Part shown: in pieces, positions 7,589 to 32,000 of the stretch
Layout: the number at the start of each line of letters is the position of its first letter
Numbering within the stretch: position 1 is the stretch's first letter
DNA from: Microcystis aeruginosa NIES-843
GTDB taxonomy: Bacteria > Cyanobacteriota > Cyanobacteriia > Cyanobacteriales > Microcystaceae
Assembly (NCBI RefSeq): GCF_000010625.1
Contig: NC_010296.1
Location: forward strand, 1,320,001-1,352,000
DNA: 32,000 nt
Direction of reading: 5' to 3'
Made by a program: the position numbers and the translations under genes
Notes under the pieces: model-generated
Databases searched by the model: none
Seen by the model: the letters and a program-made list of their open reading frames with translations, nothing else
Told to the model about the DNA's origin: nothing

Positions 7589-7589
7589 T

Positions 7590-16529: not shown

Positions 16530-16668
16530 TCCACTACCCCACTACCCCACTTCCCCCCACACCCCACACCCCACACCCTACTTCCCCACTTCCCCCCACA
16601 CTCCACACCCCACACCCCACACCCCACACCCCACACCCCACACCCCACACCCCACACCCCACTTCCCC
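16530..16668. repeat. CCCCACA heptamer tandem array (about 15 units, some degenerate as CTTCCCC/CCCTACT)
   Basis: Direct reading. The ORFs 16499-16693 (-) and 16526-16714 (+) are pure translations of this repeat (GVWGVGC / PHTPHPT). Confidence 0.9.
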
Positions 16669-16835
16669 GATGATCGAGAAAAAACTTCATCAAGAGGGGA
16701 ACAACTTCCAGTAAGATGAAAAATGGTCAGTGAAAAAGCTAACCGAAATTTATTGTCGGAAATGGTAACACCGCCCCATTTCCCCAGACCCTAGAGGCTA
16801 GAGTCCGGTAAACCAGCGGATAAAAATTGACATCC

Positions 16836-17084
16836 ATGAGTGAAGGTATTTTCGATCGAGTTAAAAAAGTTGTTGTGGAACAATTAGAAGTAGAGCCGGA
16901 AAAAGTTACTCCCGACGCAAGCTTTGCTAATGATCTGCAAGCTGATTCCCTTGATGTGGTCGAGTTAGTGATGGCTTTAGAGGAAGAATTTGATATTGAA
17001 ATTCCCGACGAAGCGGCCGAACAAATTGACACTGTAGGCAAAGCTGTTGACCATATTAGCGAGAAAGTAGGAGCAACCGCCTAA
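16836..17084 (+). CDS. acpP: Acyl carrier protein
   Basis: It contains the LGADSLD-type phosphopantetheine site ([26 protein letters not shown]). The start is moved to the first ATG (MSEGIF) because the track start at 16827 is a TTG. Confidence 0.92.
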
Positions 17085-17154
17085 TTATTGCGGGAAAATT
17101 GACAATTTAGCCTTAAATATCTGGGGCAAAATCTGCCCTTATTTTTGAACAAAC

Positions 17155-18405
17155 ATGACAGAATTGCCATTAAAAAGGGTTGTCATCACGGGGATGGGTG
17201 CAATCACTCCCCTCGGCAATAATCTAGCAGACTATTGGACAGGCTTAATCAACGGCAAAAGTGGCATTGGTTTAATTACACACTTTGATGCCTCCCGTCA
17301 CGCTTGTCGCATTGCTGGGGAAGTGCGGGGTTTTGACCCCCACGACTATGTGGATCGCAAAGAGGCAAAGCGCATGGACCGTTTCGCTCAATTTGCCGTC
17401 GCCGCCAGTTTGCAAGCACTGCAAGATTCTCGATTAGTTATCGACGCTCTCAATGCCGATGATATAGGCGTACTAATCGGTACGGGCGTGGGTGGCATAA
17501 AAGTGCTTGAGGATCAACAGGAAATTTACTTGACAAAAGGTCCGGGCCGGTGTAGTCCCTTCATGATCCCGATGATGATTGCCAATATGGCCGCTGGTTT
17601 AACCGCCATCCACACGGGGGCCAAAGGACCGAGTAACTGCACCGTGACCGCTTGCGCCGCCGGTTCCAATGCCATCGGCGATGCTTTTCGTCTAGTACAA
17701 AGGGGTTTGGCCAAAGCGATGATCTGCGGTGGGACGGAGGCCGCCGTTACCCCCCTAGGATTGGCTGGTTTTGCCTCCGCTAAGGCCCTGTCCACCCGCA
17801 ACGATGACCCCACCCGGGCCAGTCGTCCCTTTGACAAGGATCGGGATGGTTTTGTTATGGGGGAAGGGGCAGGAATCTTGATTATAGAGGAATTAGAAAC
17901 GGCCTTAGCCCGTGGGGCGCGGATTTACGCCGAAATGATCGGTTATGGTCTGACTTGCGATGCCTATCACATGACGGCACCGGTTCCCGATGGTCGTGGG
18001 GCCACCAGAGCGATCGAATTAGCGATCAAAGATGCCGGTTTGACTCCGGCGGAAATTAGCTATATCAACGCCCACGGCACCAGTACAGGGGCCAATGATC
18101 CCACGGAAACCAAGGCGATTAAAAAAGCTTTAGGAGAATCGGCCTACCAAATCCCCGTCAGTTCCACCAAATCGATGACAGGCCACCTTTTAGGCGGTTC
18201 TGGCGGCATTGAAGCCGTGGCCACGGTAATGGCGATCGCTAATGAGCGGATTCCCCCGACTCTCAACCTTGACAATCCTGACCCCGATTGTGATCTTGAT
18301 TACGTCCCCTACGAAAGTCGTCAGCAGATAGTTAACGCTGCCCTCTCCAACTCCTTTGGATTTGGTGGCCATAACGTCACCTTAGCTTTTAGAAAATATG
18401 CTTGA
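17155..18405 (+). CDS. fabF: Beta-ketoacyl-ACP synthase II
   Basis: 416-aa ORF. The active-site Cys is in TVTACAAGSNAIG, the His residues are in CDAYHMT and INAHGTST, and the C-terminus reads SNSFGFGGHN. It lies directly downstream of acpP. Confidence 0.92.
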   Translation: MTELPLKRVVITGMGAITPLGNNLADYWTGLINGKSGIGLITHFDASRHACRIAGEVRGFDPHDYVDRKEAKRMDRFAQFAVAASLQALQDSRLVIDALNADDIGVLIGTGVGGIKVLEDQQEIYLTKGPGRCSPFMIPMMIANMAAGLTAIHTGAKGPSNCTVTACAAGSNAIGDAFRLVQRGLAKAMICGGTEAAVTPLGLAGFASAKALSTRNDDPTRASRPFDKDRDGFVMGEGAGILIIEELETALARGARIYAEMIGYGLTCDAYHMTAPVPDGRGATRAIELAIKDAGLTPAEISYINAHGTSTGANDPTETKAIKKALGESAYQIPVSSTKSMTGHLLGGSGGIEAVATVMAIANERIPPTLNLDNPDPDCDLDYVPYESRQQIVNAALSNSFGFGGHNVTLAFRKYA

Positions 18406-18487: not shown

Positions 18488-20494
18488 ATGGTTGTCGCCT
18501 CCCAATCCCTCGAAGAACTTTGTATTAATGCGGTGCGTTTTTTAGCGGTGGATGCCGTAGAAAAAGCTAAATCGGGACACCCCGGACTGCCGATGGGGGC
18601 CGCACCCATGGCCTTTGTCCTCTGGGATCAATTCCTGCGTTTTAACCCGAAAAACCCCCAATGGGTCAATCGCGATCGTTTTGTTCTCTCCGCCGGTCAC
18701 GGTTGTATGCTGCAGTATGCTTTGATGTACCTGACCGGATACGATAGCGTCCCCCTAGAGGAAATTAAACAATTCCGGCAGTGGAAATCGAAAACCCCTG
18801 GCCACCCCGAAAATTTCGTCACGGAAGGGGTAGAAGTGACCACTGGTCCTCTGGGTCAAGGGATTGCTAATGGTGTCGGTTTGGCCCTAGCAGAAGCCCA
18901 TTTAGCGGCCCGTTTCAACAAGCCGGATGCCAAAATTATCGACCATTACACCTATGTGATTTTGGGTGATGGTTGCAATATGGAGGGTATTTCCGGGGAA
19001 GCTTGTTCTTTAGCCGGTCACTGGGGTTTAGGCAAGTTAATCGCTCTCTACGATGATAACCATATCTCGATCGATGGTTCCACCGATATCGCTTTCACCG
19101 AAGACGTGAGCAAGCGTTTTGAAGCCTACGGTTGGCACGTTCAGCACGTCGAGAATGGTAACACCGATTTAGATGCCATTGCCAATGCGATCGCAGCCGC
19201 CAAAGCTGTCACCGATAAACCCTCGATGATTAAAATCACCACCACCATCGGTTATGGTTCCCCCAATAAGTCTAATACCGCCGATGTTCACGGGGCAGCT
19301 TTGGGAGCAACAGAAATCGAGTTAACCCGAAAAGCATTAGGTTGGGAATACGAGCCGTTTGTGGTTCCCGATGAGGTGTTAAATCGTTTCCGGCAAGCAG
19401 TGGACAAGGGAGCGACGGCAGAAACGGACTGGAATAAGTTATTTAACGAATATCAGGCCAAATATCCCGCAGAAGCGGCTTTATTTGAACAGTTAACCAC
19501 CGGTCAACTGCCGGAAGGTTGGGAGCAAGCTTTACCGGTTTATAAACCCGAAGATAAGGCGCTCGCTAGTCGTAAACACTCGGAAATCTGCTTAAATGCG
19601 CTTGCGGGGGTTTTACCCGGTTTAATCGGTGGTTCGGCGGATTTAACCCACTCTAACTACACCGAATTAGAGCATTTTGGTAATTTCCAAAAAGGCAGTT
19701 ATCAGGAGCGTAACGTCCATTTTGGCGTGCGGGAACACGCGATGGGGGCGATTTGTAACGGGATTGCTCTCCATAACACGGGATTGATTCCCTACGGGGC
19801 GACTTTCCTGATTTTCACCGACTATATGCGGAATTCTATCCGTTTATCGGCATTGTCAGAAACCCGCGTCATCTGGGTAATGACTCACGATTCCATTGCC
19901 TTAGGGGAAGATGGACCGACTCACCAACCCGTGGAACACGTTGCTTCTCTGCGCGCTATTCCTAACCTCTTAGTCATGCGTCCGGGGGATGGTACGGAAA
20001 CTTCCGGTGCTTATAAAGTAGCGGTGAGCGAAACTAAGCGCCCGACGTTACTAGCATTATCCCGTCAAAATCTGCCCAATTTAGCGGGAACTTCCCTCGA
20101 TGGTGTGGCTAAAGGTGCTTATATTATCACCGATTCTGAAGGTACTCCCGATGTCATTCTCATCGGTACGGGTGGCGAGTTGTATCTCTGCGATAAAGCG
20201 GCTGCGGTGTTAAAAGAAGCAGGAATTAAAGCTCGCGTCGTTTCTATGCCCTGTTGGGAGCTATTCGAGGAACAATCGGCAGAATACAAAGAATCGGTAC
20301 TGCCGAAAGCAGTGAAAAAACGTCTCGCAGTGGAAGCGGGTTCAACCATGGGTTGGCATCGTTACATCACCGATGAGGGGGATGTGTTGGGGGTTGATAC
20401 CTTCGGCGCTTCTGCTCCAGGAGGTGTGATTCTAGAGAAGTTCGGTTTTACCGTGAATAACGTGGTAGCGAAGGCAAAAGCGTTGTTAGGTTAA
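18488..20494 (+). CDS. tkt: Transketolase
   Basis: 668-aa ORF. It contains SGHPG, the ThDP motif [10 protein letters not shown], and [16 protein letters not shown]. Its last 61 bp lie inside the 64-bp sequence repeated at 22650-22713. Confidence 0.93.
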
Positions 20495-20497
20495 TTA
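20434..20497 (+). repeat. Direct repeat copy 1 (64 bp): the functional tkt 3' end plus 3 bp
   Basis: agagaagttcggttttaccgtgAataacgtggtagcgaaggcaaaagcgttgttaggttaatta is identical to 22650-22713 except A20456 versus G22672. Confidence 0.95.
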
Positions 20498-20516
20498 CCT
20501 GAAATCTTAGCTGTAA

Positions 20517-20545
20517 TGAGTCAGAAAAATCTGGCTCATTTTTTT
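20517..20545 (+). terminator. Rho-independent terminator downstream of the current tkt stop
   Basis: Stem tgagtcag / ctggctca (one G-U pair), loop aaaaat, followed by a T7 run. Confidence 0.7.
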
Positions 20546-20558
20546 GTTTTTCTATTGT

Positions 20559-20584
20559 GACTGTCAGTCAGTGGACTAGGGGTC
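20559..20584 (+). promoter_or_regulatory. Putative C-box operator pair for the R-M controller protein
   Basis: GACTgtcAGTC (20559-20569), then the spacer agtg, then GACTagggGTC (20574-20584). This lies 24 bp upstream of the C-gene ATG. It matches the GACT-N3-AGTC C-box pattern known for C.PvuII-type controllers. Confidence 0.55.
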
Positions 20585-20607
20585 ACGTCAGGCAGTTTAA
20601 TCGAAGC

Positions 20608-20868
20608 ATGGCAAAGGACAATTTAGCTCAATTTGGCAGATGTTTACATAATGCTCGCATTCAAAAGGGTTTATCCCAAGAAAGGTTGGCCGAAGCGGCC
20701 AATTTGGATAGAACTTACATCAGTCTTCTTGAACGTGGTAAAAGGAATCCTTCTTTACTATGCTTGATTTCTTTATGTAGAGCATTAAACATAAGTCTTT
20801 CGGAGCTTTTTAACACTATGTCTATAAATTCCGATGTAAATACTGATGATGTCAGAAGATTTGATTAA
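20608..20868 (+). CDS. XRE-family helix-turn-helix controller (C) protein of the R-M system
   Basis: HTH core QERLAEAANLDRTYISLLERGKRNPSLLCLISLCRALNISLSELF. Its 3' end overlaps the REase start by 23 bp. The start is set at the first ATG, because the track GTG start at 20557 would lie inside the operator. Confidence 0.8.
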   Translation: MAKDNLAQFGRCLHNARIQKGLSQERLAEAANLDRTYISLLERGKRNPSLLCLISLCRALNISLSELFNTMSINSDVNTDDVRRFD

Positions 20869-21676
20869 ATTGCTTGAGCAGTTTTTGCATGATAACGAGC
20901 TTGAATGGGAATGGTTTGAAAAAATAGAAAGTTTTTGTAAGAGTTATAGTTTGAATATCAAATATATTACAGAAGTTCTCAATGATCCAAAAGTTATTCC
21001 TATGATTCGTGGCAAGTTTTTTGAGTTCACTGTACAAGATGAACTGTCAAAAATACTCGCAAATAATTATTTAGTTACTAATCCTCGCTTAAATCCTCAA
21101 GCTGGTTCTCACGATATAGATGTAGCTATTATCAATCAAAAAAACGCCAAAAAATACTCTGCTGAATGTAAGTTAGCCAAAAAAGGTAGTTTCCGTCTTC
21201 AGGGAGGTATCAGACCTTTTATTGAAGTCAAATGTATGAGATCAAGAACCTTAGGAGACAAAGCAGCAGAACAAAGGTCTAAATTGATAGGAATACCTTC
21301 AACAAGCCTAAATATTCACAAAGATCAATATATTGAAACAGATTTTGATTTAGTGATTACATCTCTTGCCAATGCTTTTTTTCAGACCAATTTAGAAACG
21401 GGACTATTTGTTTGGAAGCCCACACCAAAAGAGCAAATATTTTTAAGCAAAATTAATATTAATAATCAAGAAGAAGCCCTTTTAAAAATGTACGTTGCCA
21501 GAAGTAAAGATTTAACAGCAAATCAAACCAATAATATCAATTGTTCTCGCCAGAAATGCCACGATAACAACTGTAATTTCATCCCTAATTATCCCAAAAT
21601 TTTCTTTGATGTTAATACGGCTGAACCTCTACAACCATGGCTACCGATAGAAAAAATAGAGGATTTACTTGATTAA
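20846..21676 (+). CDS. Putative type II restriction endonuclease (PD-(D/E)XK fold)
   Basis: 276-aa AT-rich ORF co-transcribed with the C gene and convergent with the MTase. The candidate catalytic motif is SHDIDVAII...SAECKLAKK (D...E-x-K). No other family was recognised. Confidence 0.6.
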   Translation: MMSEDLIKLLEQFLHDNELEWEWFEKIESFCKSYSLNIKYITEVLNDPKVIPMIRGKFFEFTVQDELSKILANNYLVTNPRLNPQAGSHDIDVAIINQKNAKKYSAECKLAKKGSFRLQGGIRPFIEVKCMRSRTLGDKAAEQRSKLIGIPSTSLNIHKDQYIETDFDLVITSLANAFFQTNLETGLFVWKPTPKEQIFLSKININNQEEALLKMYVARSKDLTANQTNNINCSRQKCHDNNCNFIPNYPKIFFDVNTAEPLQPWLPIEKIEDLLD

Positions 21677-21685
21677 AATTAGGAA

Positions 21686-22579
21686 TCAAGATACATCGAA
21701 TAAACTTAATTGTAGAGGTGTAAATCTTGCAGGTTTCTGAAGATCATAATTAGCAATAAATACCTCCTTGCCCTTGCGTCTTTCACTCTGATAACCATGT
21801 TCTAATTTTAAACCATTTTTTTGATCATCAGTTCGATTAATAGTGTAATTCCATTCATTATCTTGTAAAGAAATACACCAATCATACATTTCTCTAATTT
21901 CGGAGCAATTATCATAAGTCAAAAGAAATTTAAATCGATGTTGATGTTTTTTCAACGTCTTACATAACCTTTCATGATCTTCTAGACTGAAGAAGCAGGA
22001 ATAGAATTTATTTTGATCTGCTTGAAAGTAAGGAGGATCGACAAATAAAAAGTAATCATCGGGTAATTGATTGATTAAATCTTCAAAATCTAAACAAGAT
22101 AAATTGACATTTTGCAGTTTTTCCGAAGTGGTTTTTAGGTGAGAAGGCCAGTTTTCAGGACGCATAGAATACTTATCACCATAGCCCCAATAACAATTTT
22201 CAAGTTTCATAATTCCTGAGTAGGAAGTTCTATTTAGATAATACCAACGCATGGCTCTTTCTAGGTCATTGGCTGGTTGAAATTCATTTTTATAATAATT
22301 GTGTAATTCTTTGGTAGCGTTTAGATCTTTTAATAATTCAATTAGACTATCAAGATGATCTTTGATATGTCGATAACAGTTCATTAATTCCTCATCTTTG
22401 TCATTGAGAATATTCTCTGCTACACTTTCCTTAGCAAAGAATATAGATGCTCCCCCCGCAAAGGGTTCACAATACTTATGGTGACTAGGAAGACAAGCTA
22501 AGATTAGCTTACGGGCATAAAATTTACCGCCAGGATAACGAAAAGGAGAATTACTAAGTTTTTTAGCGATTTTGGACAT
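21686..22579 (-). CDS. N6-adenine DNA methyltransferase, D12 class (Dam-like)
   Basis: 297-aa ORF. It contains FRYPGGKFY, the AdoMet motif CEPFAGGASIFF, and the catalytic motif VDPPYF, in the Dam-family order. Confidence 0.85.
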   Translation of the reverse strand: MSKIAKKLSNSPFRYPGGKFYARKLILACLPSHHKYCEPFAGGASIFFAKESVAENILNDKDEELMNCYRHIKDHLDSLIELLKDLNATKELHNYYKNEFQPANDLERAMRWYYLNRTSYSGIMKLENCYWGYGDKYSMRPENWPSHLKTTSEKLQNVNLSCLDFEDLINQLPDDYFLFVDPPYFQADQNKFYSCFFSLEDHERLCKTLKKHQHRFKFLLTYDNCSEIREMYDWCISLQDNEWNYTINRTDDQKNGLKLEHGYQSERRKGKEVFIANYDLQKPARFTPLQLSLFDVS

Positions 22580-22649
22580 TACCTTTGATTTTAGAGGCTT
22601 TTCTTTGAGATTATTTTAACAAAATTACGATATTTTATCTAGGAATGTC

Positions 22650-22713
22650 AGAGAAGTTCGGTTTTACCGTGGATAACGTGGTAGCGAAGGCAAAAGCGTT
22701 GTTAGGTTAATTA
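22650..22713 (+). repeat. Direct repeat copy 2 (64 bp): orphaned ancestral tkt 3' end (would encode ...[19 protein letters not shown])
   Basis: See copy 1. It is followed by its own terminator at 22736-22757. Confidence 0.95.
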
Positions 22714-22735
22714 AAACTTTGGTTTTGTGGAAAAA

Positions 22736-22757
22736 GCCCGCGCCAGCGGGTTTTTTT
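22736..22757 (+). terminator. Rho-independent terminator (probable ancestral tkt terminator)
   Basis: Stem cccgc / gcggg with loop gcca, preceded by an A5 run and followed by a T7 run. It lies 23 bp after the orphaned tkt stop. Confidence 0.7.
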
Positions 22758-22778
22758 GTGCTAGGATCTAACCCTATC

Positions 22779-23219
22779 GTGCAAAGGGTTGACTGGGTGA
22801 TTCCTTTTACAGACAGAGAACTACAAAAAGCATGGAGAGAAAATCAACGAGCGGCAAAGGTCAAAACCATAACTAACGCTCATCGTTTATTGCTATTTTA
22901 CTCCGTTGAATGTGGTCTCAAAGCGGTTTTACTGAAAAGACAAAGTAAAGATTGCACCGATTCTTGTCGAGAATTACTTGAAGTGCGGCATGATATAAAT
23001 AAGTTACTAGACAAACTAGCTGCGGGAGAAAAACTAAAACTTCCCTCACAATTAAGTATGAAACCTTTAAAAAATAATCAAGAGAGAGAGCTTTCTTCCG
23101 GTGAAATTAATCAAATGTGGCGATATGGGGGATGCTGTGAAAATATCAAGGATGGTGAATTAGAAAAAAAATTGTTAGATATATTAAGTTGGATTGCACA
23201 GGAGTTGCAGGGACTATGA
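22779..23219 (+). CDS. HEPN-like small protein (putative RNase effector). The start is uncertain: GTG at 22758, 22779 or 22797.
   Basis: There is no in-frame ATG near the 5' end. The track start at 22719 would run through the terminator. FYSVECGLKAVLLKRQ ... CRELLEVRHDINKLLDKL resembles the HEPN helix pattern, with an R-x6-H motif (R at 22968-22970, H at 22989-22991). The stop overlaps the next ATG (ATGA at 23216-23219). Confidence 0.6.
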   Translation: MQRVDWVIPFTDRELQKAWRENQRAAKVKTITNAHRLLLFYSVECGLKAVLLKRQSKDCTDSCRELLEVRHDINKLLDKLAAGEKLKLPSQLSMKPLKNNQERELSSGEINQMWRYGGCCENIKDGELEKKLLDILSWIAQELQGL

Positions 23220-25960
23220 GAAGACGGCCATTACTAACTTGGTTTGATATTAAAAGAAAAATTGCTCGCGAAACCGCTAACGGAAATGACTTACCTGATA
23301 GTATTGTTAAAATTAGTTGTTTTAGTAGTGCTTTAGAGATTGGTATTCAAAGTCAAAATGATCAACCAAAAGCTAACTCAATATTAAAAGAATGGTTCGG
23401 AGATTGGTATCAAGAATCAGAACAAATTATTCAGCTAGATATTGATAATGCTTCTATTCCTGTAGAATTTATTTTAATAGATAATAGTTCTTATTTTTCT
23501 CCATCGATTCGACCTTTTTGGCAGGAAGTCGCTTATTTAAAAGAAAATACAGATTCAGAGCAATCGGATAATTTTTTACCCAATGCTTATCAAGATAAGC
23601 CAGAAATTATTGCTTTTTATTCTTTTAAAGGTGGTGTGGGAAGAACCCTACATTTAGCCGCTTATATTCTTGCTCTCTTAGCAAGAGCAAAAGATATAAA
23701 TAAACCAATTAAAATTTTAGTTATTGACTCAGATTTAGAGGCTCCGGGGTTAACCTATTGGCAAAGGTATGAAAGTCAAGAGGCAACCGTATCTTTGAGC
23801 AATTTTTTAGAAGTTTATCAATATCCCAAGCCATCTCTAGAGGTGGCACTCTCTTGGGTAACTCAAGAAATTAAGAAAACTGCCAAACAGCAAAATAAAT
23901 CAACTTTATATTTTTTACCCGCTTTTATTGAAGAAGAAGAACTCTTAGATACTCCTATACTGCCAGAAAATTTAGCCAGAAATCCGTCGGGTGCTTGGGA
24001 GGTAGGGGATGCAATTCATCAATTAGGGCAAAAATTAGCAGTAGATTATATATTTATTGATTTAAGAGCAGGATTAAGTGAAATTTCTAGCCCAATTTTA
24101 TTTGACTCTAGAATCCAAAGATTTTTAGTAACAACAGTTAATGAGCAATCTTGGCGAGGTGTCAGGATGGTTTTAGAAAAAATTGGCTTACTAGCTCCCA
24201 GTGACTCAAAAGTAAAGGATGATAATTATTATGATCCTTCGATAATTATTAGTTTTTTAACCCCAGAAGTCAGAAATTTATCAGCATTTGAGAATATTTT
24301 AGAGCAATTACAGTCGGCTTATGTTCAACCCAAAAATGAGAGTTTATATACTACTAGACTGGATATTAAAGAAACTTATTTCGCCCAAGAGTTACTATAT
24401 GTTAACAATTGGGACGAAGCTCAAAACAAATTAAGTTCAACTTCCTTGATGGAACTGGCAAGACAATGGGCAGAAGATGAATTATCTAATAATAGCATTG
24501 CATCAGCCACACCTTCAGATAACTCCTTAGATGATGTGAAAAAACTCAGGGATACTTGCAATAAATATATTTATGCAGAAAAGGGAGAAGGGGAAGATTT
24601 ACTCATTACCGAGCCATTGAAAAATCTCGCTCGTAATTTTCAAGATAAACTACCTAATGTTATCTCAATTGGTGCTAAAGGTGCGGGAAAAACCTTTAAT
24701 TATATTCAGCTATCTCGCCTACAGTCTTGGGAAAATTTTTTAAATAAAGTTGATCCTCAAAATCAAGAAAATTCCCGAGAAAATCTCGGTTTAATATTTC
24801 CTTTACTGCAATCAAAAAATTTAGCAGAGGATGCCAAAGATATTCTTGAGCAAGCACGGCAAAATGTTAATAATTTTCTTAATAATGATTATCAATTTTC
24901 CTTCTCGGATTTAAGAGACAGAATCACGCAGTCGCTATCAAATCAGGATTGGAATGAGGTTGATTGGACAAATTTTTGGATCAAAGAAATTTCGAGAGTT
25001 TTAGGTTATAATCCTGAAAATTGTCAATTACATAAACTGCATGAATACCTTCAACAAAAAAACTCGAAGATTATATTTTTATTTGATGGATTAGAAGATG
25101 ATTTTCCTAATGTTGCCAATGATAAGGATAACCTTCAACGAAAAGCCTTGAAAGCTTTGATCGATCATTTACCCAATAAATTATCAGAAATTCGGCAATC
25201 TAATCTCGGCTTGATTGTCTTTCTGCGTCGAGATTTCTTGAGATATACAATCACACAAAACTCGCAACAATTTGAAAACTTATATCGTAATTATGATCTA
25301 TCTTGGAATCTAGAATCGTTTCTTAAACTTTCCTATTGGCTCTGCATACAATCATCGGTTATTAATGCTAACCCTCAAGATTTATTCGATTGTTCAATTG
25401 AAGATTTAAAAGGAAAACTAGAACGACTTTGGGGCAAAAAATTAGGAGCAGATAATGCAAGGGAAGCTAAGTCAGACAATTGGATTTTTGCCGCTTTAAC
25501 CGATTTTAATGGAAGACTACAAGCGCGGGATATTGTGAGATTTTTGTACCATGCTGCTAATATTACTGTAGAAAAAAAAGAAGAAATACAATTTACTAAA
25601 TGGTCGAATACTAGACTGTTACCTCCCCAAGCGATTCGACGAGCGCTTAAACCCTGTAGTGAAGAAAAAGTTGACGAGTCTAAGGAAGAATATCCTATAT
25701 TTAAAATCTGGGTACAAGAAAGGTTACATGAATATAGTGATAAAAAAATTCCTTTTTCTCTAGAACAGTTTAATCTGGATGCTACTACAGTCAATATTCT
25801 TGAGCAAATGGGAGTAATTTACGAGGACAAGGATAAAGAAGATGCAGTTCGTTATTATATGCCCGAAATATTCCGTGAAGGGTTAGGATTTTCTAGTCAA
25901 GGTGCGCGTCCTCGTGTTCTCGCTTTAAAGCGCAAAGTTTTGGGGAAATCAAATTTTTAA
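23216..25960 (+). CDS. 914-aa multidomain NTPase: unknown N-domain, then a ParA/MinD-like ATPase with KGGVGR-variant Walker A, then a second STAND-like P-loop NTPase module
   Basis: An AGGAG Shine-Dalgarno (23200-23204) precedes the ATG at 23216. Module 1 has FYSFKGGVGRT (23627-23647 = KGGVGRT), ILVIDSDLEAPG, and the Walker B-like DYIFIDLRAG. Module 2 has GAKGAGKT (24671-24694) and IIFLFDGLEDD (D at 25085-25087). The ~280-aa C-terminal region has no recognised motif. Confidence 0.8.
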   Translation: MRRRPLLTWFDIKRKIARETANGNDLPDSIVKISCFSSALEIGIQSQNDQPKANSILKEWFGDWYQESEQIIQLDIDNASIPVEFILIDNSSYFSPSIRPFWQEVAYLKENTDSEQSDNFLPNAYQDKPEIIAFYSFKGGVGRTLHLAAYILALLARAKDINKPIKILVIDSDLEAPGLTYWQRYESQEATVSLSNFLEVYQYPKPSLEVALSWVTQEIKKTAKQQNKSTLYFLPAFIEEEELLDTPILPENLARNPSGAWEVGDAIHQLGQKLAVDYIFIDLRAGLSEISSPILFDSRIQRFLVTTVNEQSWRGVRMVLEKIGLLAPSDSKVKDDNYYDPSIIISFLTPEVRNLSAFENILEQLQSAYVQPKNESLYTTRLDIKETYFAQELLYVNNWDEAQNKLSSTSLMELARQWAEDELSNNSIASATPSDNSLDDVKKLRDTCNKYIYAEKGEGEDLLITEPLKNLARNFQDKLPNVISIGAKGAGKTFNYIQLSRLQSWENFLNKVDPQNQENSRENLGLIFPLLQSKNLAEDAKDILEQARQNVNNFLNNDYQFSFSDLRDRITQSLSNQDWNEVDWTNFWIKEISRVLGYNPENCQLHKLHEYLQQKNSKIIFLFDGLEDDFPNVANDKDNLQRKALKALIDHLPNKLSEIRQSNLGLIVFLRRDFLRYTITQNSQQFENLYRNYDLSWNLESFLKLSYWLCIQSSVINANPQDLFDCSIEDLKGKLERLWGKKLGADNAREAKSDNWIFAALTDFNGRLQARDIVRFLYHAANITVEKKEEIQFTKWSNTRLLPPQAIRRALKPCSEEKVDESKEEYPIFKIWVQERLHEYSDKKIPFSLEQFNLDATTVNILEQMGVIYEDKDKEDAVRYYMPEIFREGLGFSSQGARPRVLALKRKVLGKSNF

Positions 25961-25991
25961 TGGTTCGAGCTTTTTGGCAATGACTATATGA

Positions 25992-26195
25992 TTGATTGTT
26001 GTCAGCTTTTCAAAACAGGATTTGCTATTACCCAGCATTGGGGAATTGATTCGTTCATCAAAAAAGCTACACTACTGGGATTCTTGTGTTTTTTTAGCTT
26101 TCCTGAAAAATGAAAAGGATAAAATTAATGATTGTATTTCTGTTCTCAAAGTAGCTGAAAATGGTCAGGTAATCTGTCACCGCCGCCTACTCTAG
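25992..26195 (+). pseudogene. Truncated N-terminal fragment of a PIN-domain (VapC-like) toxin gene
   Basis: KKLHYWDSCVFLAFLKNE...VLKVAENGQVI resembles the first ~45 residues of PIN toxins (the h-h-D-[ST]-x-V-h-h pattern with the first catalytic Asp). The frame then ends after CHRRLL. There is no ATG start and it abuts the tRNA 3' end. Confidence 0.35.
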
Positions 26196-26232
26196 TGCAG
26201 TCAAAGCCGATCACCCGAAGCCATCAAAACTA

Positions 26233-26305
26233 TCCAGGGTGCAGGAGTTGAACCTGCCTAGCACGAATTATGAGTTCGTTGCCTCAACCGCTCGGCCAAC
26301 CCTGG
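26233..26305 (-). tRNA. tRNA with CAU anticodon (elongator Met, or more likely the lysidine-modified Ile2 type)
   Basis: The minus strand reads CCAGGGT TG GCCGAGCGGTTGAGGC A ACGAA CTCATAA TTCGT GCTAG GCAGG TTCAACT CCTGC ACCCTGG A. This gives a perfect 7-bp acceptor stem, a 5-bp anticodon stem, a 5-bp T stem, U33, anticodon CAT and A37. No CCA is encoded. The D-arm and T-loop resemble the plastid trnI-CAU as I recall it. Confidence 0.85.
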
Positions 26306-26369
26306 GTTATACTATTAACTCATTATAGATCGGTAATCACTCCGAACGTGAAAATCCAGCCCCACCAAG

Positions 26370-26663
26370 ATGAAAAAATTTGCAATCAGCACCTCCTTGC
26401 AGTTAGGACTCCTTTTGATGGTAGCCATGTTAGCCGCCGGCTTCGGTAGCGGTTGGGTAGCCTATCAATTGGGAATCGCCTCCCTGAAGGGAGTCAGTCA
26501 ACCGGATATCAACCCTGCTAAAAAGTTTACCAACGATCGCACCAGTTATGGTCGCAATCAAACTTTTATCCCCGTGAAAGAAGAAGAGGTGCTGAAAAGA
26601 GTGAGAGTTTATATGCAACAACAGAAAAACCAACCGCAATCAAAGGATGAAACCAAAGGATAG
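26370..26663 (+). CDS. Small membrane-anchored hypothetical protein (97 aa)
   Basis: ATG-initiated ORF with one N-terminal hydrophobic span (LQLGLLLMVAMLAAGFGSGWVAY) and a charged tail. No motif was recognised. Confidence 0.5.
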   Translation: MKKFAISTSLQLGLLLMVAMLAAGFGSGWVAYQLGIASLKGVSQPDINPAKKFTNDRTSYGRNQTFIPVKEEEVLKRVRVYMQQQKNQPQSKDETKG

Positions 26664-26695
26664 GCTTTAAAAAAGGCGAATTTTGCCTTTTCGCT

Positions 26696-28030
26696 ATGGA
26701 TAATCAGGATTTATTGACTCGTTTAATTTTAGTCTTTTTACTAATCGTCCTCAATGCTTTTTTCGTAGCGGCCGAATTTTCGCTCGTGTCTGTCCGTCGT
26801 ACCCGCATCAGTCAGCTAGTGGCTGCGGGAGATGTGCCAGCGCAGACGGTCCAATCTCTACAAAGAAGTCTCGATCGCTTACTTTCCACTACCCAATTAG
26901 GTATCACCCTTTCTAGTTTAGCTTTAGGTTGGATCGGGGAGAGTACCATGACCGTTTTTGTGAGGAAATTACTAAGTTTTTTACCCTTTTCCTTAAACTG
27001 GCAAAATCTTCTCTCCCATGGTTTCTCTCTTTGTCTAGCTTTTTTAATCGTGGCCTATCTCCAGATAGTTTTTGGGGAACTTTATCCCAAATCCCTCGCT
27101 TTAATTTATGCCGAACCAATGGCGCGATTATTAGCGGCACCTATTGGCGTTATTTCCCGAATTTTTAAGCCTTTTATCGGTATTCTTAACCAATCAACTC
27201 GTTTTTTATTGGTTTTAACCCGTATCCCCGAAGTAGATCTACAGCGTTCTAGTCGGGTAACTTCCGAGGAATTACAATTAATTATCAGCATGGAAGGGGA
27301 ATTAACGGGATTAGAAGCAGCGGAAAGGAAAATTTTAAATAATGTTTTCCAGTTTAGCGAAATCACTGCCGCGGAAATCATGGTTCCCCATAACCGTTTA
27401 GTAGCTATTTCCTCGACCGCAACTTTTGAGGAATTATTGCTCCAAGTAGTTAACAGTGGCTATTCTTGTTATCCTGTGGAAGGAGATTCCGGTGATGATA
27501 TCCGTGGTCTGATCGATTTTAAAGATTTAGCTTTACCCCTTGCTCAGGGTCAGTTAAATTTAACAACCCCGATTAAACCTTGGTTAAAACCTGTGCGTTT
27601 TTTCCCCGAAACCACTGCTTTAAATGAATTACTAACAGTGATGCGGGAATCATCCTTAAAGATGGTTATCATTGTCGATGAATTTGGCAGAACAGCCGGT
27701 TTATTAACCCTAAAAGATTTAATCGGTGAGATTCTGGGAACTTTTTCCCCTAGTGATGAATCAGGAACAGTAAAATATCAACTCCTCGATGAATCGACTT
27801 TTCTCGTACAAGCACAAATGAATTTAGAGGACGTGAACAAAGCATTAAATTTAAGTTTACCCTTGGCCGATGAATACCAAACCCTAGCTGGTTTTGTCCT
27901 CCATCATTGGCAAAAAATACCGAAGGTGGGAGAACAATTATATTACCAAAATTTAGAATTTACCATCATTTCTAAGGTCGGCCCTCGCTTGGAACAAATT
28001 AAGATTTATCGGCAACAACTATCCTCATGA
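26696..28030 (+). CDS. Hemolysin-family / CNNM-type protein (DUF21 transmembrane domain, CBS pair, CorC_HlyC domain)
   Basis: 444-aa ORF. The N-terminal DUF21 pattern is LNAFFVAAEFSLVSVRR. Then comes the CBS-pair region (AAEIMVPHNRLVAIS...), then the C-terminal transporter-associated domain (TLAGFVLHHWQKIPKVGE). Confidence 0.85.
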   Translation: MDNQDLLTRLILVFLLIVLNAFFVAAEFSLVSVRRTRISQLVAAGDVPAQTVQSLQRSLDRLLSTTQLGITLSSLALGWIGESTMTVFVRKLLSFLPFSLNWQNLLSHGFSLCLAFLIVAYLQIVFGELYPKSLALIYAEPMARLLAAPIGVISRIFKPFIGILNQSTRFLLVLTRIPEVDLQRSSRVTSEELQLIISMEGELTGLEAAERKILNNVFQFSEITAAEIMVPHNRLVAISSTATFEELLLQVVNSGYSCYPVEGDSGDDIRGLIDFKDLALPLAQGQLNLTTPIKPWLKPVRFFPETTALNELLTVMRESSLKMVIIVDEFGRTAGLLTLKDLIGEILGTFSPSDESGTVKYQLLDESTFLVQAQMNLEDVNKALNLSLPLADEYQTLAGFVLHHWQKIPKVGEQLYYQNLEFTIISKVGPRLEQIKIYRQQLSS

Positions 28031-28106
28031 TATAAACAAGAAACAACTTTTCTCATTTATCCTTCTTGATTGTTAATCGAGTCAATAGCTGCCCACTCCT
28101 GTCACC

Positions 28107-29228
28107 ATGAAACACCTTTTGACACTCCTCCCCCTCAGCTTGGGATTAATTGCCCTCACCCCCGCAAATTTGCCCCTAGAACGTTTTGAAATCTCACAAT
28201 TAGGAACATCTACGGGATACGATGAACGACTGCTAACGGACAAAAAAACCCTCCTACAAGCGATCGATCATAGTTTACGTTATCTGAATAGCTCGGCGGC
28301 GATCCGCGCCTATCAAAATTATCCTATTCCTGAAATAAATCGTCAGCGAGTGCAGCGTTCCTTAGTCCGTTTTCGTCAATTAGTGCAGAATTCTCCCACT
28401 CCCGCAGCTCTACAAAAGGCAGTTAAAAAAGAATTTATTTGGTATCGTTCTTTGGGTAATGATAGCCAGGGAAATGTTAAATTTACTGGTTATTTTGAGC
28501 CAATTTATCAAGCAAGTCGGCAAAAAACCGCCGAGTATAAATATCCTCTTTATCGCCGACCTGCTAACTTTTCTCGCTGGTCAAAACCCCATCCAGCTAG
28601 GGTAGAATTAGAGGGAAAAGATGGTTTACTGGGGGAAAATAGCCGTCTCTCGAGATACGAATTAGTCTGGTTAAAAGATCGCTTAGAAGCTTATTTAGTT
28701 CATGTGCAAGGTTCGGCGAAATTACGTTTACCTAATGGTCAAATTATGAGCATCGGTTTTGATGGCAATACCGAGCATCCCTACACAAGTCTGGGAAAAG
28801 AAATGATTGCCGATGGTATTTTTCCTGCTGAGGGTTTAACCTTACCAATGGTTTTGGATTTTCTCAGAAATAATCCTGAGCAATTAAAGAATTATATTCC
28901 CCGCAATAATCGGTTTATTTTCTTTCGAGAAACCCACGGCGCAGCTGCCACTGGTAGTATTGGAGTTCCGGTTTTACCGGAAAGATCGATCGCTACAGAT
29001 AAAAGTATTTTTCCCCCCGGTGCTTTAGCAGTAATTGAGACAGAAATTCCCCAGGGAAATCTTAATAAAAAATTAGTTAGTCGCTATGTTCTCGATCAAG
29101 ATACTGGCAGTGCGATTAAAGGTACTGGGAGGGTAGATATTTTTATGGGAACAGGAAAAAATGCGGGTGAGCGAGCCGGTTTAATTAATACTCCCGGTCA
29201 ATTATATTATTTATTATTGAGGGAATAG
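28107..29228 (+). CDS. mltA: Murein transglycosylase A family protein (MltA plus 3D domain), secreted
   Basis: The signal peptide is MKHLLTLLPLSLGLIALTPA. The MltA motifs are FTGYFEP and YLVHVQGSAKLRLPNG. The 3D-domain motif is DTGSAIKGTGRVDIFMGTG. Confidence 0.85.
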   Translation: MKHLLTLLPLSLGLIALTPANLPLERFEISQLGTSTGYDERLLTDKKTLLQAIDHSLRYLNSSAAIRAYQNYPIPEINRQRVQRSLVRFRQLVQNSPTPAALQKAVKKEFIWYRSLGNDSQGNVKFTGYFEPIYQASRQKTAEYKYPLYRRPANFSRWSKPHPARVELEGKDGLLGENSRLSRYELVWLKDRLEAYLVHVQGSAKLRLPNGQIMSIGFDGNTEHPYTSLGKEMIADGIFPAEGLTLPMVLDFLRNNPEQLKNYIPRNNRFIFFRETHGAAATGSIGVPVLPERSIATDKSIFPPGALAVIETEIPQGNLNKKLVSRYVLDQDTGSAIKGTGRVDIFMGTGKNAGERAGLINTPGQLYYLLLRE

Positions 29229-29310
29229 GAAATAGTATAGGTAGAATTAAGATACAATTCCCAGAATCGGTTATCGGTTATCATATTTAAGGGAGAATTT
29301 TAAAAATAGA

Positions 29311-30474
29311 ATGATGGAAAAAAACACAAATATAGATTGGTCGGATTGTGGTCCAATTACTTTAGTAGTCGTGCAGCCGACTTCTTTTTGTAATCTCAAT
29401 TGTGATTACTGTTATTTACCCGATCGCCACTTAAAAAATACCTTATCCTTAGATTTAATCGAGCCGATTTTTCAGAGGGTTTTTAGTAGTCGTTTTCTCC
29501 AAGATGATTTTACCATTTGCTGGCACGCCGGCGAACCGTTAGCAGTTCCCATCAGTTTTTATGAAAGTGCTTTCGCCAAAATTGCGGAAGTTAGCGAGAA
29601 ATATAATCAGCAGGGTTACTGTTTTCGTCATTCAGTACAAACTAACGCCACTTATATTAACGATGCTTGGTGTCAATTATTTAAAAAGCATGATGTTTAT
29701 GTGGGAGTCAGTCTTGATGGACCGGCCTTTATTCACGATATCCACCGGCAAAACCGCAAGGGAACTGGCAGTCATGCTGCTACAATGCGGGGGATTTCTT
29801 TCTTGCAAAAACATGAAATTGATGTGAGTGTCATCGCTGTTTTAACAGAAGATTCTCTCGACTATCCCGACGAAATTTTTAACTTTTTTTGGGATCATGG
29901 TCTTACCGATGTGGCTTTTAATATGGAAGAAACCGAGGGTATTCATTCGCAATCTTCCTTAGATAAATTAGGTATTGAACAACGTTATCGCCAGTTTATC
30001 GCCAGATTTTGGGAGTTAGTCACGGCCAAACAAGGAGAATTTAAGCTGCGGGAATTTGAATCGATCTGTAGTTTAATTTATGCCGATGAACGCTTAGAAA
30101 ATACCGATATGAATCGACCTTTTATGATTGTCAATTTTGATAATCAAGGTAATTTTTCCACCTTTGATCCGGAATTACTATCGATTAAAACCCAACCCTA
30201 CGGCGATTTTATCTTTGGTAATGTTTTGACCGATTCCCTGGAATCTATCTGTGAAACTGAGAAATTTCAAAAAATTTACGCTGATATGTGCGGTGGAGTC
30301 GATTTATGTCGGCAAAAATGCGATTATTTTGGGGTTTGCGGGGGGGGGGCCGGTAGTAACAAATATTGGGAAAATGGCACTTTCAACTCCACAGATACTA
30401 AAGCCTGTTTATACCGGATTAAGTGTATCACCGATATAGTTCTTGATCGCCTAGAAAATTTATTAGAAGTTTAA
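29311..30474 (+). CDS. Radical SAM / SPASM-domain maturase (anSME/AslB-like)
   Basis: The radical SAM cluster motif is CNLNCDYC (CX3CX2C). The C-terminal SPASM Cys pattern is CRQKCDYFGVCGGG...C...C. Confidence 0.85.
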   Translation: MMEKNTNIDWSDCGPITLVVVQPTSFCNLNCDYCYLPDRHLKNTLSLDLIEPIFQRVFSSRFLQDDFTICWHAGEPLAVPISFYESAFAKIAEVSEKYNQQGYCFRHSVQTNATYINDAWCQLFKKHDVYVGVSLDGPAFIHDIHRQNRKGTGSHAATMRGISFLQKHEIDVSVIAVLTEDSLDYPDEIFNFFWDHGLTDVAFNMEETEGIHSQSSLDKLGIEQRYRQFIARFWELVTAKQGEFKLREFESICSLIYADERLENTDMNRPFMIVNFDNQGNFSTFDPELLSIKTQPYGDFIFGNVLTDSLESICETEKFQKIYADMCGGVDLCRQKCDYFGVCGGGAGSNKYWENGTFNSTDTKACLYRIKCITDIVLDRLENLLEV

Positions 30475-30487
30475 AGATTTTTTTAGC

Positions 30488-30555
30488 TATCAGTAATCAG
30501 TAATCAGTAATCAGTTATCAGTTATCAGTTATCAGTTCACTGATTACTGTTTACT
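30488..30555. repeat. ATCAGTA/ATCAGTT heptamer tandem array plus TTACTG units
   Basis: Direct reading: atcagtaatcagtaatcagtaatcagttatcagttatcagttatcagttcactgattactgtttact. Confidence 0.9.
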
Positions 30556-30583
30556 AATAACTTATGAAACAAACCTGATCTAA

Positions 30584-30808
30584 ATAGGGTCTGCTGAATA
30601 AATCTAAAAACCTTGTTGGATAAGAATTTTAGACTTTTTTCCCATCAAAAAGTGCCAGACATTGGGGTGATCGGGGGGGAAATTTAGGCACTTTTTCCCT
30701 GAAAATTAGGTAATTGACCCCCTGAAAATGGGTAAAACCCTACACCCCACACCCCACACCCCACACCCCACACCCTGCCCCCACGAAAAACTCTTTCAGC
30801 AAACCCTA
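30584..30808 (-). mobile_element. MITE copy C (225 bp), inverted relative to copies A and B
   Basis: It begins tagggtctgctgaa (30584-30597) and ends ttcagcaaacccta (to 30808). Its internal sequence is the reverse complement of copies A and B, including the (CCCCACA)n array. Confidence 0.8.
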
Positions 30809-30872
30809 AATACCATTTTTCCAAAGTAACGACAGAGATGGTCATGCCTGCTACGAATAAAGAAAAATGGTA

Positions 30873-31583
30873 TTATTCTTCTTCTAAACTTAATCCTAAC
30901 GCCTGTAAGCGTTCCGCTAGTCGATCCGCACGTTTCTTTTCTTTATCGGCACGTTTCTTTTCTTTATCGGCACGTTTCTTTTCTTTATCGGCACGTTTCT
31001 TTTCTTGACGCATTTGAGACTCTAACTCAACAGTTGTTAAAAATTTCTCTCCATCAGGACGATACAATTCTAAACTAGATTTATTCCAGATAAAACGCAC
31101 ACCTAAACGGGGACTTATCCAGTCATTGATGGGGATAATTTCTCTTAAAGTTTTTCCCTGTCTTTGCCATCCTTGTAAACGACAGCGCATCGGGTTATAT
31201 AAATAGTATTCTTCTACACTATATGTGTCATAAAACTCTAATTTTCGACTCATCTCTGCTTTTGTATTCTTCGGTGATAGAATTTCAAAAACCACTTGAG
31301 GAGCGATATTTTCTTCCTGCCATTGACGATAGGAACCCCTTCGTCCTTTGGGACGGCCAAAAGCTACAATCACATCGGGAGCAACCGGTGAAACCAAAGT
31401 AGAACGCAGAGGATACCAGAGTAAATCTCCGGCAATAAACACCTTAGGGTCATCGGCAAAGATAATCTCTAAATTCTCCTTAATTTTGACAATCCACTCA
31501 TATTGTTCGGTATTATCTGCCATCGGTTGACCATCGCTATCGGGGAAAAGAAGATCGTCGTCAATATCAAGATAACTAACCAT
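30873..31583 (-). CDS. Uma2-family (DUF820) PD-(D/E)XK endonuclease with a C-terminal KKRADKE heptad expansion
   Basis: 236-aa ORF. It contains PDSDGQPMADNT, VAPDVIVAFGRPKGRRGSY and VVFEILSPKNT, all typical of cyanobacterial Uma2 proteins. The C-terminus reads EKKRADKEKKRADKEKKRADKEKKRAD. Confidence 0.85.
   Translation of the reverse strand: MVSYLDIDDDLLFPDSDGQPMADNTEQYEWIVKIKENLEIIFADDPKVFIAGDLLWYPLRSTLVSPVAPDVIVAFGRPKGRRGSYRQWQEENIAPQVVFEILSPKNTKAEMSRKLEFYDTYSVEEYYLYNPMRCRLQGWQRQGKTLREIIPINDWISPRLGVRFIWNKSSLELYRPDGEKFLTTVELESQMRQEKKRADKEKKRADKEKKRADKEKKRADRLAERLQALGLSLEEE
30928..31010. repeat. 21-bp tandem repeat (3 full copies and a truncated, divergent fourth) inside the Uma2 coding sequence
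   Basis: The unit gcacgtttcttttctttatcg occurs at 30928-30948, 30949-30969 and 30970-30990, with a truncated, divergent copy to 31010. It is in-frame and encodes KKRADKE repeats on the minus strand. Confidence 0.9.
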
Positions 31584-31629
31584 TGTCTTTTAATTTTAAT
31601 AGATGGTTGTTTTCTGATTATAGCAAGAT

Positions 31630-31768
31630 AATTATGAATTATGAATTATCAATTATCAATTATTAATTATTAATTATGAATTATGAATTGGGGAGATGGG
31701 GTAATGGGGGAGTGGGGGAGTGGGGGAGATGGGGTAATGGGGGAGTGGGGAGGAGGGGAGAAGGGAGA
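31630..31768. repeat. AATTATG/AATTATC/AATTATT heptamer array followed by a G-rich GGGGAGT/GGGGAGA/TGGGGTAA array
   Basis: Direct reading of 31630-31689 (AT heptamers) and 31690-31768 (G-rich units). Confidence 0.9.
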
Positions 31769-31912
31769 AAAAAGCTGATGGCTGACAAAAGGTCTTAAGC
31801 GGCGGTTATATCTATTAAAGTCTATATTTATCAAAAAGTTAATTGACTAGAATCTATAAAAGCGTTAGGATTGATGGTGACAAATAGTTGTTATTGAGAA
31901 GGGGATAAGAAC

Positions 31913-32000
31913 TTGATACAGGCAACCCTGCACCAGTTAAGGGTTTTCGAGGCTACCGCTCGACACAGTAGCTTTACCAAGGCGGCCGAGGAGTTATTTA
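31913..32000 (+). CDS. LysR-family transcriptional regulator, N-terminal HTH (CbbR/CmpR/RbcR-like); partial, runs off the window end
   Basis: A TTG start is preceded by gaagggga. Translation reads (M)IQATLHQLRVFEATARHSSFTKAAEELF, which matches the LysR HTH signature as found in cyanobacterial RbcR/CmpR-type regulators. Confidence 0.7.
   Translation, partial: MIQATLHQLRVFEATARHSSFTKAAEELF

Follow-up and report, generated by a model that had tools for sequence, protein, structure and literature searches.

In a survey of the anti-phage hotspots of P4 satellites, Rousset et al. (2022, Cell Host Microbe, Table S1B) listed a two-gene candidate, system 43, which was annotated "HEPN" and "AAA_31", was found at 34 loci and was described as "Likely a RNAse". 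Its proteins are a small one of about 145 amino acids (WP_016245208) and a large one of about 890 amino acids (WP_016245209/WP_100774474). System 43 was not among the tables of cloned systems in that paper, and the string KGGVGR was absent from its table file. PDC-M28, which comprises the genes A, B and C and has 121 instances, entered PADLOC through the guilt-by-embedding analysis of Payne et al. (2024), in which PDC candidates were defined by their embedding in BREX, DISARM or type I restriction-modification (R-M) loci; it is among the 145 candidates called untested by those authors. Earlier, a dyad of a HEPN gene (MAE_18760 family) and a ParA/Soj gene had been described as a predicted toxin-antitoxin system (Anantharaman et al. 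2013, Biology Direct), and "inactive MinD/ParA-like" domains fused to AP-ATPases or vWA proteins had been described in conflict systems of multicellular bacteria (Kaur et al. 2020, eLife). Here we analysed a gene pair located directly after a type II R-M-like cassette in a stretch of 32,000 nucleotides from Microcystis aeruginosa NIES-843 (NC_010296.1, positions 1,320,001 to 1,352,000 of the forward strand). This whole stretch is called the window, and all window coordinates given below are positions within it.

The pair consists of a small gene (22797..23219, + strand), which encodes an all-alpha, HEPN-like protein of 140 amino acids from the GTG at 22797, and a large gene (23216..25960, + strand) with an ATG start, which encodes a protein of 914 amino acids with two P-loop nucleoside triphosphatase (NTPase) folds. 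The initial annotation of this DNA proposed an undescribed defence system. That novelty did not hold, because the E. coli homologue of the pair is system 43 of 2022, a HEPN and ParA/Soj dyad was reported in 2013 and PDC-M28 was reported in 2024; the pair is a member of an already catalogued candidate kind. The two genes probably form a horizontally mobile conflict or anti-phage module of the abortive-infection type. The parts of this reading that were observed directly are the architecture, the conservation and the genomic context of the pair, from which we infer sensing, activation and an RNase activity.

Results

The small and large genes form a conserved, translationally coupled pair

Relatives of the large protein were collected by scanning one genome per species. 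The scan yielded full-length homologues from at least 549 species, one locus or more for each, and the best 80 loci were fetched. For 77 of these 80, the hidden Markov model of the small protein matched an ORF immediately upstream of the large gene and on its strand. In two of the three loci without an upstream match (L025 and L075) the contig ended at the match, and in the third (L027) about 3 kb of upstream sequence was present. The junction between the genes could be evaluated in 72 loci, and the stop codon of the small gene and the start codon of the large gene overlapped by 4 nt in 49 of them and by 1 nt in 6. The pairing recurred in 77/80 and the overlap in 49/72 independent loci, which is more than a chance arrangement. 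The pair is obligate and translationally coupled, in agreement with the fixed two-gene module of the initial annotation, and its expectation that the HEPN-like gene would be a conserved neighbour of the large gene among homologues was borne out.

In the window, the sequence ATGA at 23216-23219 is common to the end of the small gene and the start of the large gene. The AGGAG ribosome-binding site of the large gene (23200..23204, + strand) is contained in the last part of the small gene and precedes the ATG by 11 nt. These two features and the 914-amino-acid open reading frame (ORF), all pointed out earlier, were present. Just 5' of the small gene, a GC-rich hairpin with a T-run, GAAAAAGCCCGCGCCAGCGGGTTTTTTT (22731..22757, + strand), forms a terminator; it is the one that directly follows tkt in other strains, and the hairpin was also detected on the minus strand. 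Two alternative in-frame starts of the small gene are located at 22779 (GTG, 146 amino acids, used in the source annotation) and at 22758 (153 amino acids). The latter, which had been taken as the start of the gene, was set aside because it sits in the T-run of the terminator hairpin, while the N-termini of the homologues line up with the GTG at 22797, where the protein begins with VIPFTDRE. As judged from these sequences, GTG 22797 or 22779 is more likely to be the start than 22758. The residue numbers of the small protein given below follow the 153-amino-acid numbering from 22758.

The large protein joins an arginine P-loop ParA-fold domain to a second NTPase

The conservation of motifs and columns in the large protein was determined over 68 full-length sequences, and AlphaFold2 (AF2) models of both full proteins were compared with known structures using Foldseek. 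The results confirmed a four-part protein, in which an N-domain is followed by a ParA/MinD-fold domain, then by a separate NACHT-style NTPase and finally by a C-terminal region, as originally proposed, and the motifs quoted for it (KGGVGRT, ILVIDSDLEAPG, DYIFIDLRAG, GAKGAGKT and FLFDGLEDD) were all found in their places. Orthologues of the protein carry the RefSeq name 'KGGVGR-motif variant AAA ATPase'. The N-terminal alpha/beta domain (residues 1-125; 23216..23590, + strand) has the invariant residues W9, D11 and P100. With a mean column conservation of 0.45, similar to that of the linker at residues 331-470 (0.44), it is among the least conserved parts of the protein. Neither the N-terminal 125 residues nor the C-terminal region matched any Pfam family.

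The ParA/MinD-fold domain (residues 129-323; 23600..24184, + strand) contains the motifs KGGVGRT (residues 138-144; 23627-23647), ILVIDSDLEAPG (residues 167-178) and DYIFIDLRAG (residues 277-286). It matched the NCBIfam family NF047398, "KGGVGR-motif variant AAA ATPase", with 160 bits against a cut-off of 90, and Foldseek aligned it with MinD (3q9l, E 2.4e-5, probability 1.0) and also with Soj, FlhG, NifH and McdA. The motif KGGVGRT was present in 68/68 sequences, so the lysine of the P-loop was always replaced by arginine (R143), and the signature lysine K138 and the residues D171, D173 and D282 were invariant. The deviant Walker A motif KGGxGK[ST], with its P-loop lysine, was found in none of the 68 sequences, and the ParA-type models of Pfam all scored below their cut-offs. 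No ParB-type family occurred among the neighbours (best 25 of 158 Pfam families), and the constant neighbour was the HEPN-like gene. Replacement of the P-loop lysine by arginine is expected to permit nucleotide binding yet impair hydrolysis. Since this residue is arginine in every member, the domain is not a standard ParA ATPase; of the ParA-like ATPase in the initial annotation, the MinD/Soj fold was retained but the P-loop lysine was not. A reading as a ParA partition ATPase was rejected, with no ParB partner among these neighbour families and with arginine in place of the P-loop lysine.

The second P-loop NTPase (residues 471-700; 24626..25315, + strand) was recognised by its Walker A and B motifs and by Foldseek. 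Its Walker A motif GAKGAGKT comprises residues 486-493 (24671-24694) and its Walker B motif FLFDGLEDD residues 621-629 (25076-25102). The pattern GxKGxGKT was present in 68/68 sequences and DG[LIV]E[DEN] in 63/68, and the residues G486, K488, G489, G491, K492, T493, D624, G625 and E627 were invariant. Fold matches were obtained to BrxC, ORC/Cdc6 and p97. In the profile searches, the domain reached 58.3 bits with NF047389 (Sll1717 family), below the cut-off of 75, and there was no match to NACHT, NB-ARC or other STAND families, only one to AAA_22 with 20.8 bits against a cut-off of 27. The label of a STAND/NACHT-type NTPase is thus backed by the conserved Walker A and B motifs but not by any STAND-family profile. 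The C-terminal region (residues 701-914; 25316..25957, + strand) is mostly helical, contains no repeats and matches the C-terminal part of PDC-M28C. It was strongly conserved, at R771, D772, R775, R800, P804, C814, K818, E884, R887 and other positions.

The small protein weakly resembles HEPN proteins and carries an invariant acid/His/Arg set

The family search with the small protein (clusters at 50% identity, E < 0.001) returned at least 559 clusters, nearly all of them stand-alone proteins of 130-150 amino acids. The AF2 model was all-alpha with a pLDDT (predicted local distance difference test score) of 91, and showed long helices at residues 19-33, 40-61, 114-122 and 132-151; helices 2 and 3 are separated by an insert made up of a beta-hairpin and short helices. 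When the model was compared with the Protein Data Bank (PDB) by Foldseek, the top of the list was mostly HEPN proteins (1ufb, 4nqf, 3o10, 2hsb, 1wol, 1wwp and 7bxo_H); these matches were weak (E 0.8-6, TM 0.33-0.49) and were intermixed with cytochrome b562-type bundles. No significant match came from profile searches of Pfam, NCBIfam, PADLOC and PHROGs, sequence searches of the PDB with three profiles gave no match, and a Foldseek comparison of the model with viral structures gave no informative match. Members of two alignments (50 + 52 = 102) were also scanned individually for sub-threshold Pfam matches, and PF05168 (HEPN) appeared in 3/102, namely in 1/50 (E 0.039) and in 2/52 (E 0.003). The UniProt name of the small protein of the window itself is "HEPN domain-containing". 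HEPN membership of the small protein is therefore weakly supported, with HEPN proteins at the top of the fold list but no significant profile or fold match.

Among 52 aligned members, with identity down to 26%, the residues Y48, E51, G53, K55, H78, R122 and Y123 were invariant. The R-x6-H dyad proposed earlier could not be upheld. The string RELLEVRH that contains it is present in the insert between helices 2 and 3, but R71 and R77 vary in the family and H78 alone is conserved. In the layout of HEPN domains, a conserved acidic residue is located in helix 2 and the arginine of Rx4-6H where helix 3 ends, and some families (AbiV, AF0298-like) take their histidine from the stretch inserted between helices 2 and 3 (Anantharaman et al. 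2013). E51 in helix 2, H78 in the insert and R122 at the end of helix 3 would fit this "alternative histidine" layout, not Rx4-6H.

The absence of a canonical Rx4-6H motif, and a HEPN fold match no better than that to generic four-helix bundles, would also suit a defence module in which the small protein is a degenerate, non-catalytic HEPN-like bundle that serves as an adaptor or regulator. The effector would then be part of the large protein, either as its N-terminal domain, whose 125 residues match no family and are variable, as effector or sensor heads often are, or through nucleotide consumption or filament formation by its NTPases. We regard this arrangement as unlikely, although it deserves to be kept in view, since seven residues are invariant down to 26% identity, the acid/His/Arg set among them is typical of an active site and not of a scaffold, and HEPN families whose histidine lies in the insert that separates helices 2 and 3 have been described (Anantharaman et al. 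2013).

The pair is accessory and occurs in recognised defence hotspots

The best 80 of the at least 549 homologues came from Cyanobacteria, Desulfobacterota (cable bacteria and Syntrophobacteraceae), Betaproteobacteria, Firmicutes, Planctomycetota, Acidobacteriota, Chloroflexota, Actinomycetota and one archaeon, a metagenome-assembled genome of Methanogenium; gammaproteobacterial members of this set were found in Thiomargarita, Parabeggiatoa, Thiothrix, Methylomonas, Pantoea and Endozoicomonas. In E. coli the pair was present in just 11/5426 complete genomes (0.2%). Plasmid matches were restricted to three Ralstonia megaplasmids, two of them full-length and one a 14% fragment, and the pair is therefore not plasmid-borne in general.

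Several homologous pairs were found within mobile elements or defence loci. In E. coli 4/2-1 (L108, CP023834.1, 9557-18859), the order was tRNA-Leu, int, the pair, an insertion sequence (IS) of the IS21 family, psu, delta and sid, and Rousset et al. (2022) defined the int-psu interval of P4-like satellites as an anti-phage hotspot. In a P2-like prophage (L102, IMG/VR, 1019-11357), the pair was located between the portal gene gpQ and a gpA-like nickase gene, in the old/tin hotspot. In L052 it lay inside DISARM, between DrmD-DrmMI and the DEAD+DUF1998 helicase, and in L043 the order was DrmD-DrmMI, the pair and an HNH gene.

The Microcystis site downstream of tkt is hypervariable and differs in R-M genes, PIN genes, IS elements and the presence or absence of the pair. 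The pair follows straight after tkt in four loci (L086-L088 and L098), with only about 68 nt between tkt and the small gene, whereas in the window and in L094 the R-M genes come first and then the pair. In Microcystis flos-aquae DF17 (L092, 13728-18064), a DDE_3 transposase gene is inserted between an intact small gene and an intact large gene. In L091 (18443-19365) nothing but the 3' part of the large gene is left, its last ~260 codons with a frameshift, and in L093, L095 and L097 the pair is absent and either R-M genes or a pair of a 255-amino-acid protein and a PIN protein occupy its place. The pair is accessory and occurs in recognised defence hotspots. The classic defence-island context of the initial annotation was accordingly confirmed for the variable Microcystis hotspot and for the P4, P2 and DISARM homologues, but it did not extend to most other loci, which are solo, or to the Nostocales, in which the locus is fixed.

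This variation bears on a housekeeping role as a ParA-type positioning ATPase, which annotations such as 'ParA family protein' and 'MinD-like ATPase' imply. The MinD/Soj fold of the first domain, the conserved locus by rpsB, tsf and recG in the Nostocales and the enrichment of the family in filamentous or large bacteria are in line with such a role. It is nonetheless highly improbable. The P-loop lysine is arginine in all members, no ParB, parS or MinE partner is present, and the invariant partner is instead a HEPN-like protein. Furthermore, the pair is present, absent or decayed among Microcystis strains, and 0.2% of E. coli genomes carry it, with the examined E. coli locus lying inside a P4 satellite.

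The same contexts could be explained by a plain toxin-antitoxin or addiction module, in which a constitutive HEPN-like toxin is countered by the large ParA-like protein as antitoxin, acting via a nucleotide-dependent conformational change or phosphorylation, and which stabilises mobile elements or genomic islands without phage sensing. This function was proposed for the HEPN(MAE_18760) and ParA/Soj dyad (Anantharaman et al. 2013). The tight translational coupling fits a pair of fixed stoichiometry, members reside on satellites, prophages and integration hotspots, and many loci are solo insertions. However, a 900-amino-acid protein with two NTPases and a conserved, sensor-like C-terminus goes far beyond what an antitoxin needs, and the IS in L092 parts two genes that are both intact, which would argue against an unrestrained toxin. 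A toxin-antitoxin function and phage defence are also not mutually exclusive. On balance, a simple addiction module appears distinctly unlikely, and a mobile conflict or anti-phage module is preferred.

Mic1-like phages carry a homologue of the second NTPase

Gene 5 of the Microcystis phage Mic1 (L101, MN013189.1, 5031-5651) encodes a protein of 206 amino acids annotated as a "ParA family protein". As a truncated copy, it shares 60% identity with residues 471-693 of the large protein, which correspond to the second NTPase and not to the ParA-like domain, and it had no ParA match in Pfam. Five metagenomic Mic1-like contigs (L103-L107, ~6001-6519) carry the gene at the same place, with flanking genes 90-98% identical to those of Mic1. 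The Walker A motif forms a series in these phages: it is an intact GAKGAGKT in L103, GEDVAKKT in Mic1 and GEGVAENT in L104-L107, where it is accompanied by a deletion of about 35 residues. Mic1 and L104-L107 keep a DGLEN Walker B motif and the same C-terminal end point, and the L103 contig ends before this part. From these sequences, gene 5 would be either a captured host fragment undergoing decay from the 5' end or a decoy of the host protein with a dead P-loop, and conservation is not decisive between decay and decoy because the Mic1-like phages are too closely related. Mic1 was inferred to encode a ParABS partition system (Yang et al. 2020). That inference, for which gene 5 was taken as the ParA, is undercut by the alignment of the Mic1 "ParA" with the non-ParA second NTPase only.

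Other features of the Microcystis locus

The pair is preceded by tkt (18488-20494) and by the type II R-M-like cassette (20557..22579). This cassette consists of a helix-turn-helix (HTH) controller gene (20557-20868), an ORF of 276 amino acids without a Pfam match (20846-21676), which overlaps the HTH gene by 23 nt and is the presumed restriction endonuclease, and a D12 N6-adenine methyltransferase gene (21686-22579, minus strand). A direct repeat of 65 nt derived from the 3' end of tkt (20433-20497 and 22649-22713, with 1 mismatch) brackets the 2.1-kb cassette, and a copy of the tkt end together with the tkt terminator therefore now precedes the small gene. The same methyltransferase was found 3' of the pair in other strains.

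Downstream of the pair, the first 43 codons of a PIN gene remain (26046..26174, + strand) as residues 19-61 of an ORF at 25992-26195. This remnant is 91% identical to residues 1-43 of the intact 156-amino-acid PIN protein of other Microcystis strains. The intact PIN gene and its 255-amino-acid partner directly follow tkt in L095, L097 and L099. A tRNA-Met gene (26233..26305, minus strand) comes next. The GC content is 0.32-0.38 over 20500-26000 and 0.40-0.56 in the flanks, and the AT-rich island between tkt and the tRNA, beside an R-M cassette and a PIN remnant, has the neighbours that were described for it. The same island had also been called free of HIP1 sites (GCGATCGC). Six sites occur in the first 19.2 kb and none after 19194, so that the island indeed has none, but the absence covers the last 12.8 kb (19195-32000), of which about 6 kb lie past the island and hold ordinary-looking genes. 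Since it reaches 32000, the lack of HIP1 is not specific to the island.

Discussion

In a mobile conflict or anti-phage module, the large protein would serve as a nucleotide-dependent switch. Its second NTPase and conserved C-terminus may sense an infection-associated cue and change the oligomeric state of the protein, and the KGGVGR domain may be an ATP-binding dimerisation module with slow or no turnover. The small HEPN-like protein would be the effector, held inactive in a complex with the large protein. Known HEPN RNases form their active site across a dimer. The effector may likewise be switched on when two copies of the small protein meet, and the candidate catalytic residues are E51 and K55 in helix 2, H78 in the insert between helices 2 and 3, and R122 and Y123 at the end of helix 3.

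A number of observations weigh against such a function. No published experimental test was found for any member of the family. In the analysis of neighbouring genes, which covered 26 non-redundant loci, most loci were solo insertions by housekeeping genes such as ileS, metH, purL and the gene for PPDK. Nine loci, eight from Nostocales and one from Coleofasciculaceae, share the order rpsB, tsf, an unassigned gene, recG, the pair and an ABC transporter, with the ABC-2 transporter genes on the opposite strand (L001, L002, L003, L005, L006, L023, L032, L039 and L061, at ~3600-17300 in each). This placement looks like long vertical retention, and such stability would be uncommon among defence systems. 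The C-terminal region ranks with the most conserved parts of the large protein, unlike the fast-evolving sensor domains of Avs-type STAND proteins. For the small protein, no Foldseek match in the PDB reached E < 0.001, four-helix cytochromes scored alongside HEPN proteins, and no Pfam match was obtained at threshold. The Rx4-6H motif is also lacking, as the invariant R122 at the end of helix 3 is followed by no histidine 4-6 residues later.

A bolder version would make the pair a widespread immune system, present in at least 549 bacterial and archaeal species, in which a ParA-fold KGGVGR dimeriser crippled in hydrolysis and a NACHT-like NTPase control a non-canonical HEPN RNase that takes its histidine from the insert, and in which Mic1-like phages use the captured core of the second NTPase, mostly with a degenerate P-loop, as a decoy that poisons the assembly of the host protein; in this full form it seems a long shot. 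If the decoy reading of the Mic1-like gene were true, it would represent a new type of anti-defence protein, and the homologous gene fragment in these phages gives studies of phage counter-defence a concrete lead. Should the pair be a functional defence system, it would be a multi-phylum family that joins an arginine P-loop ParA-fold domain to a NACHT-style NTPase, and it would add a HEPN variant without the canonical motif. Because its E. coli homologues reside in P4 satellites, the family is directly testable with standard phage panels. Microcystis is a bloom-forming cyanobacterium rich in defence genes, and in this genus the pair marks a fast-turnover hotspot beside tkt.

Comparison with known systems

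Among STAND/NACHT receptors, Avs/AVAST and bNACHT systems resemble the pair in the hhhhDG[LIV]E[DEN] style of the Walker B motif, in the helical domains that follow it and in a nuclease-type effector, and STAND/NACHT receptors are carried in the same P4 and P2 hotspots as the family of the window pair. Unlike these receptors, the large protein has no Pfam match to NACHT or NB-ARC, no C-terminal repeats and a conserved C-terminus. The pair further differs from Avs and bNACHT systems in that its effector is a separate protein and that an extra ParA-fold domain is present. A ParA-fused clade was not mentioned in the 2026 Nature survey of STAND proteins. The systems of Kaur et al. (2020) share with the large protein a MinD/ParA fold predicted to be impaired and joined to a STAND-type NTPase, as well as a preference for cyanobacteria and filamentous bacteria. 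This likeness was drawn from their description. The domains of Kaur et al. belong to vWA-MoxR ternary or peptide-processing systems, whereas the family of the window has no such neighbours.

The dyad of 2013 is similar to the window pair in architecture, with a small HEPN-type gene beside a gene for a ParA/Soj (SIMIBI) ATPase. Its HEPN family is named after a Microcystis aeruginosa gene, MAE_18760, and is likened to the family of the window by architecture alone. The MAE_18760 family has Rx4-6H and is often fused to other N-terminal domains, whereas the family of the window is without Rx4-6H and nearly always stands alone, and a second NTPase was not mentioned for the dyad (Anantharaman et al. 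2013).

PDC-M28 is closer in sequence. The N-domain and the KGGVGR domain of the large protein matched PDC-M28B (54.9 bits, E 1.9e-15, partial coverage), and the second NTPase and the C-terminus matched PDC-M28C (40.1 bits, E 5e-11, partial coverage), whereas the match of the small protein to PDC-M28A was not significant (E 0.0065). Five other members with the fused large protein showed the same pattern of matches to A, B and C. One fused member is embedded in DISARM, the kind of criterion by which PDC candidates are defined. The genes B and C are separate in PDC-M28 and are fused into one polypeptide in the family of the window. Identity with PDC-M28 was rejected, given the fused genes and the low scores. 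The fusion of B and C, together with the low and partial scores, therefore makes this family a sister family of PDC-M28, not PDC-M28 itself.

System 43 differs from the window pair in its location, as it occupies the int-psu hotspot of P4-like satellites at tRNA-Leu, while the window pair occupies a chromosomal hotspot after tkt. In other respects the two agree. Both consist of two genes in the same order. Identity is 45% between the small proteins (E 9e-35) and 37% between the large proteins across their full length, and the motifs KGGVGRT, GAKGAGKT and DG[IL]ED are present in both large proteins.

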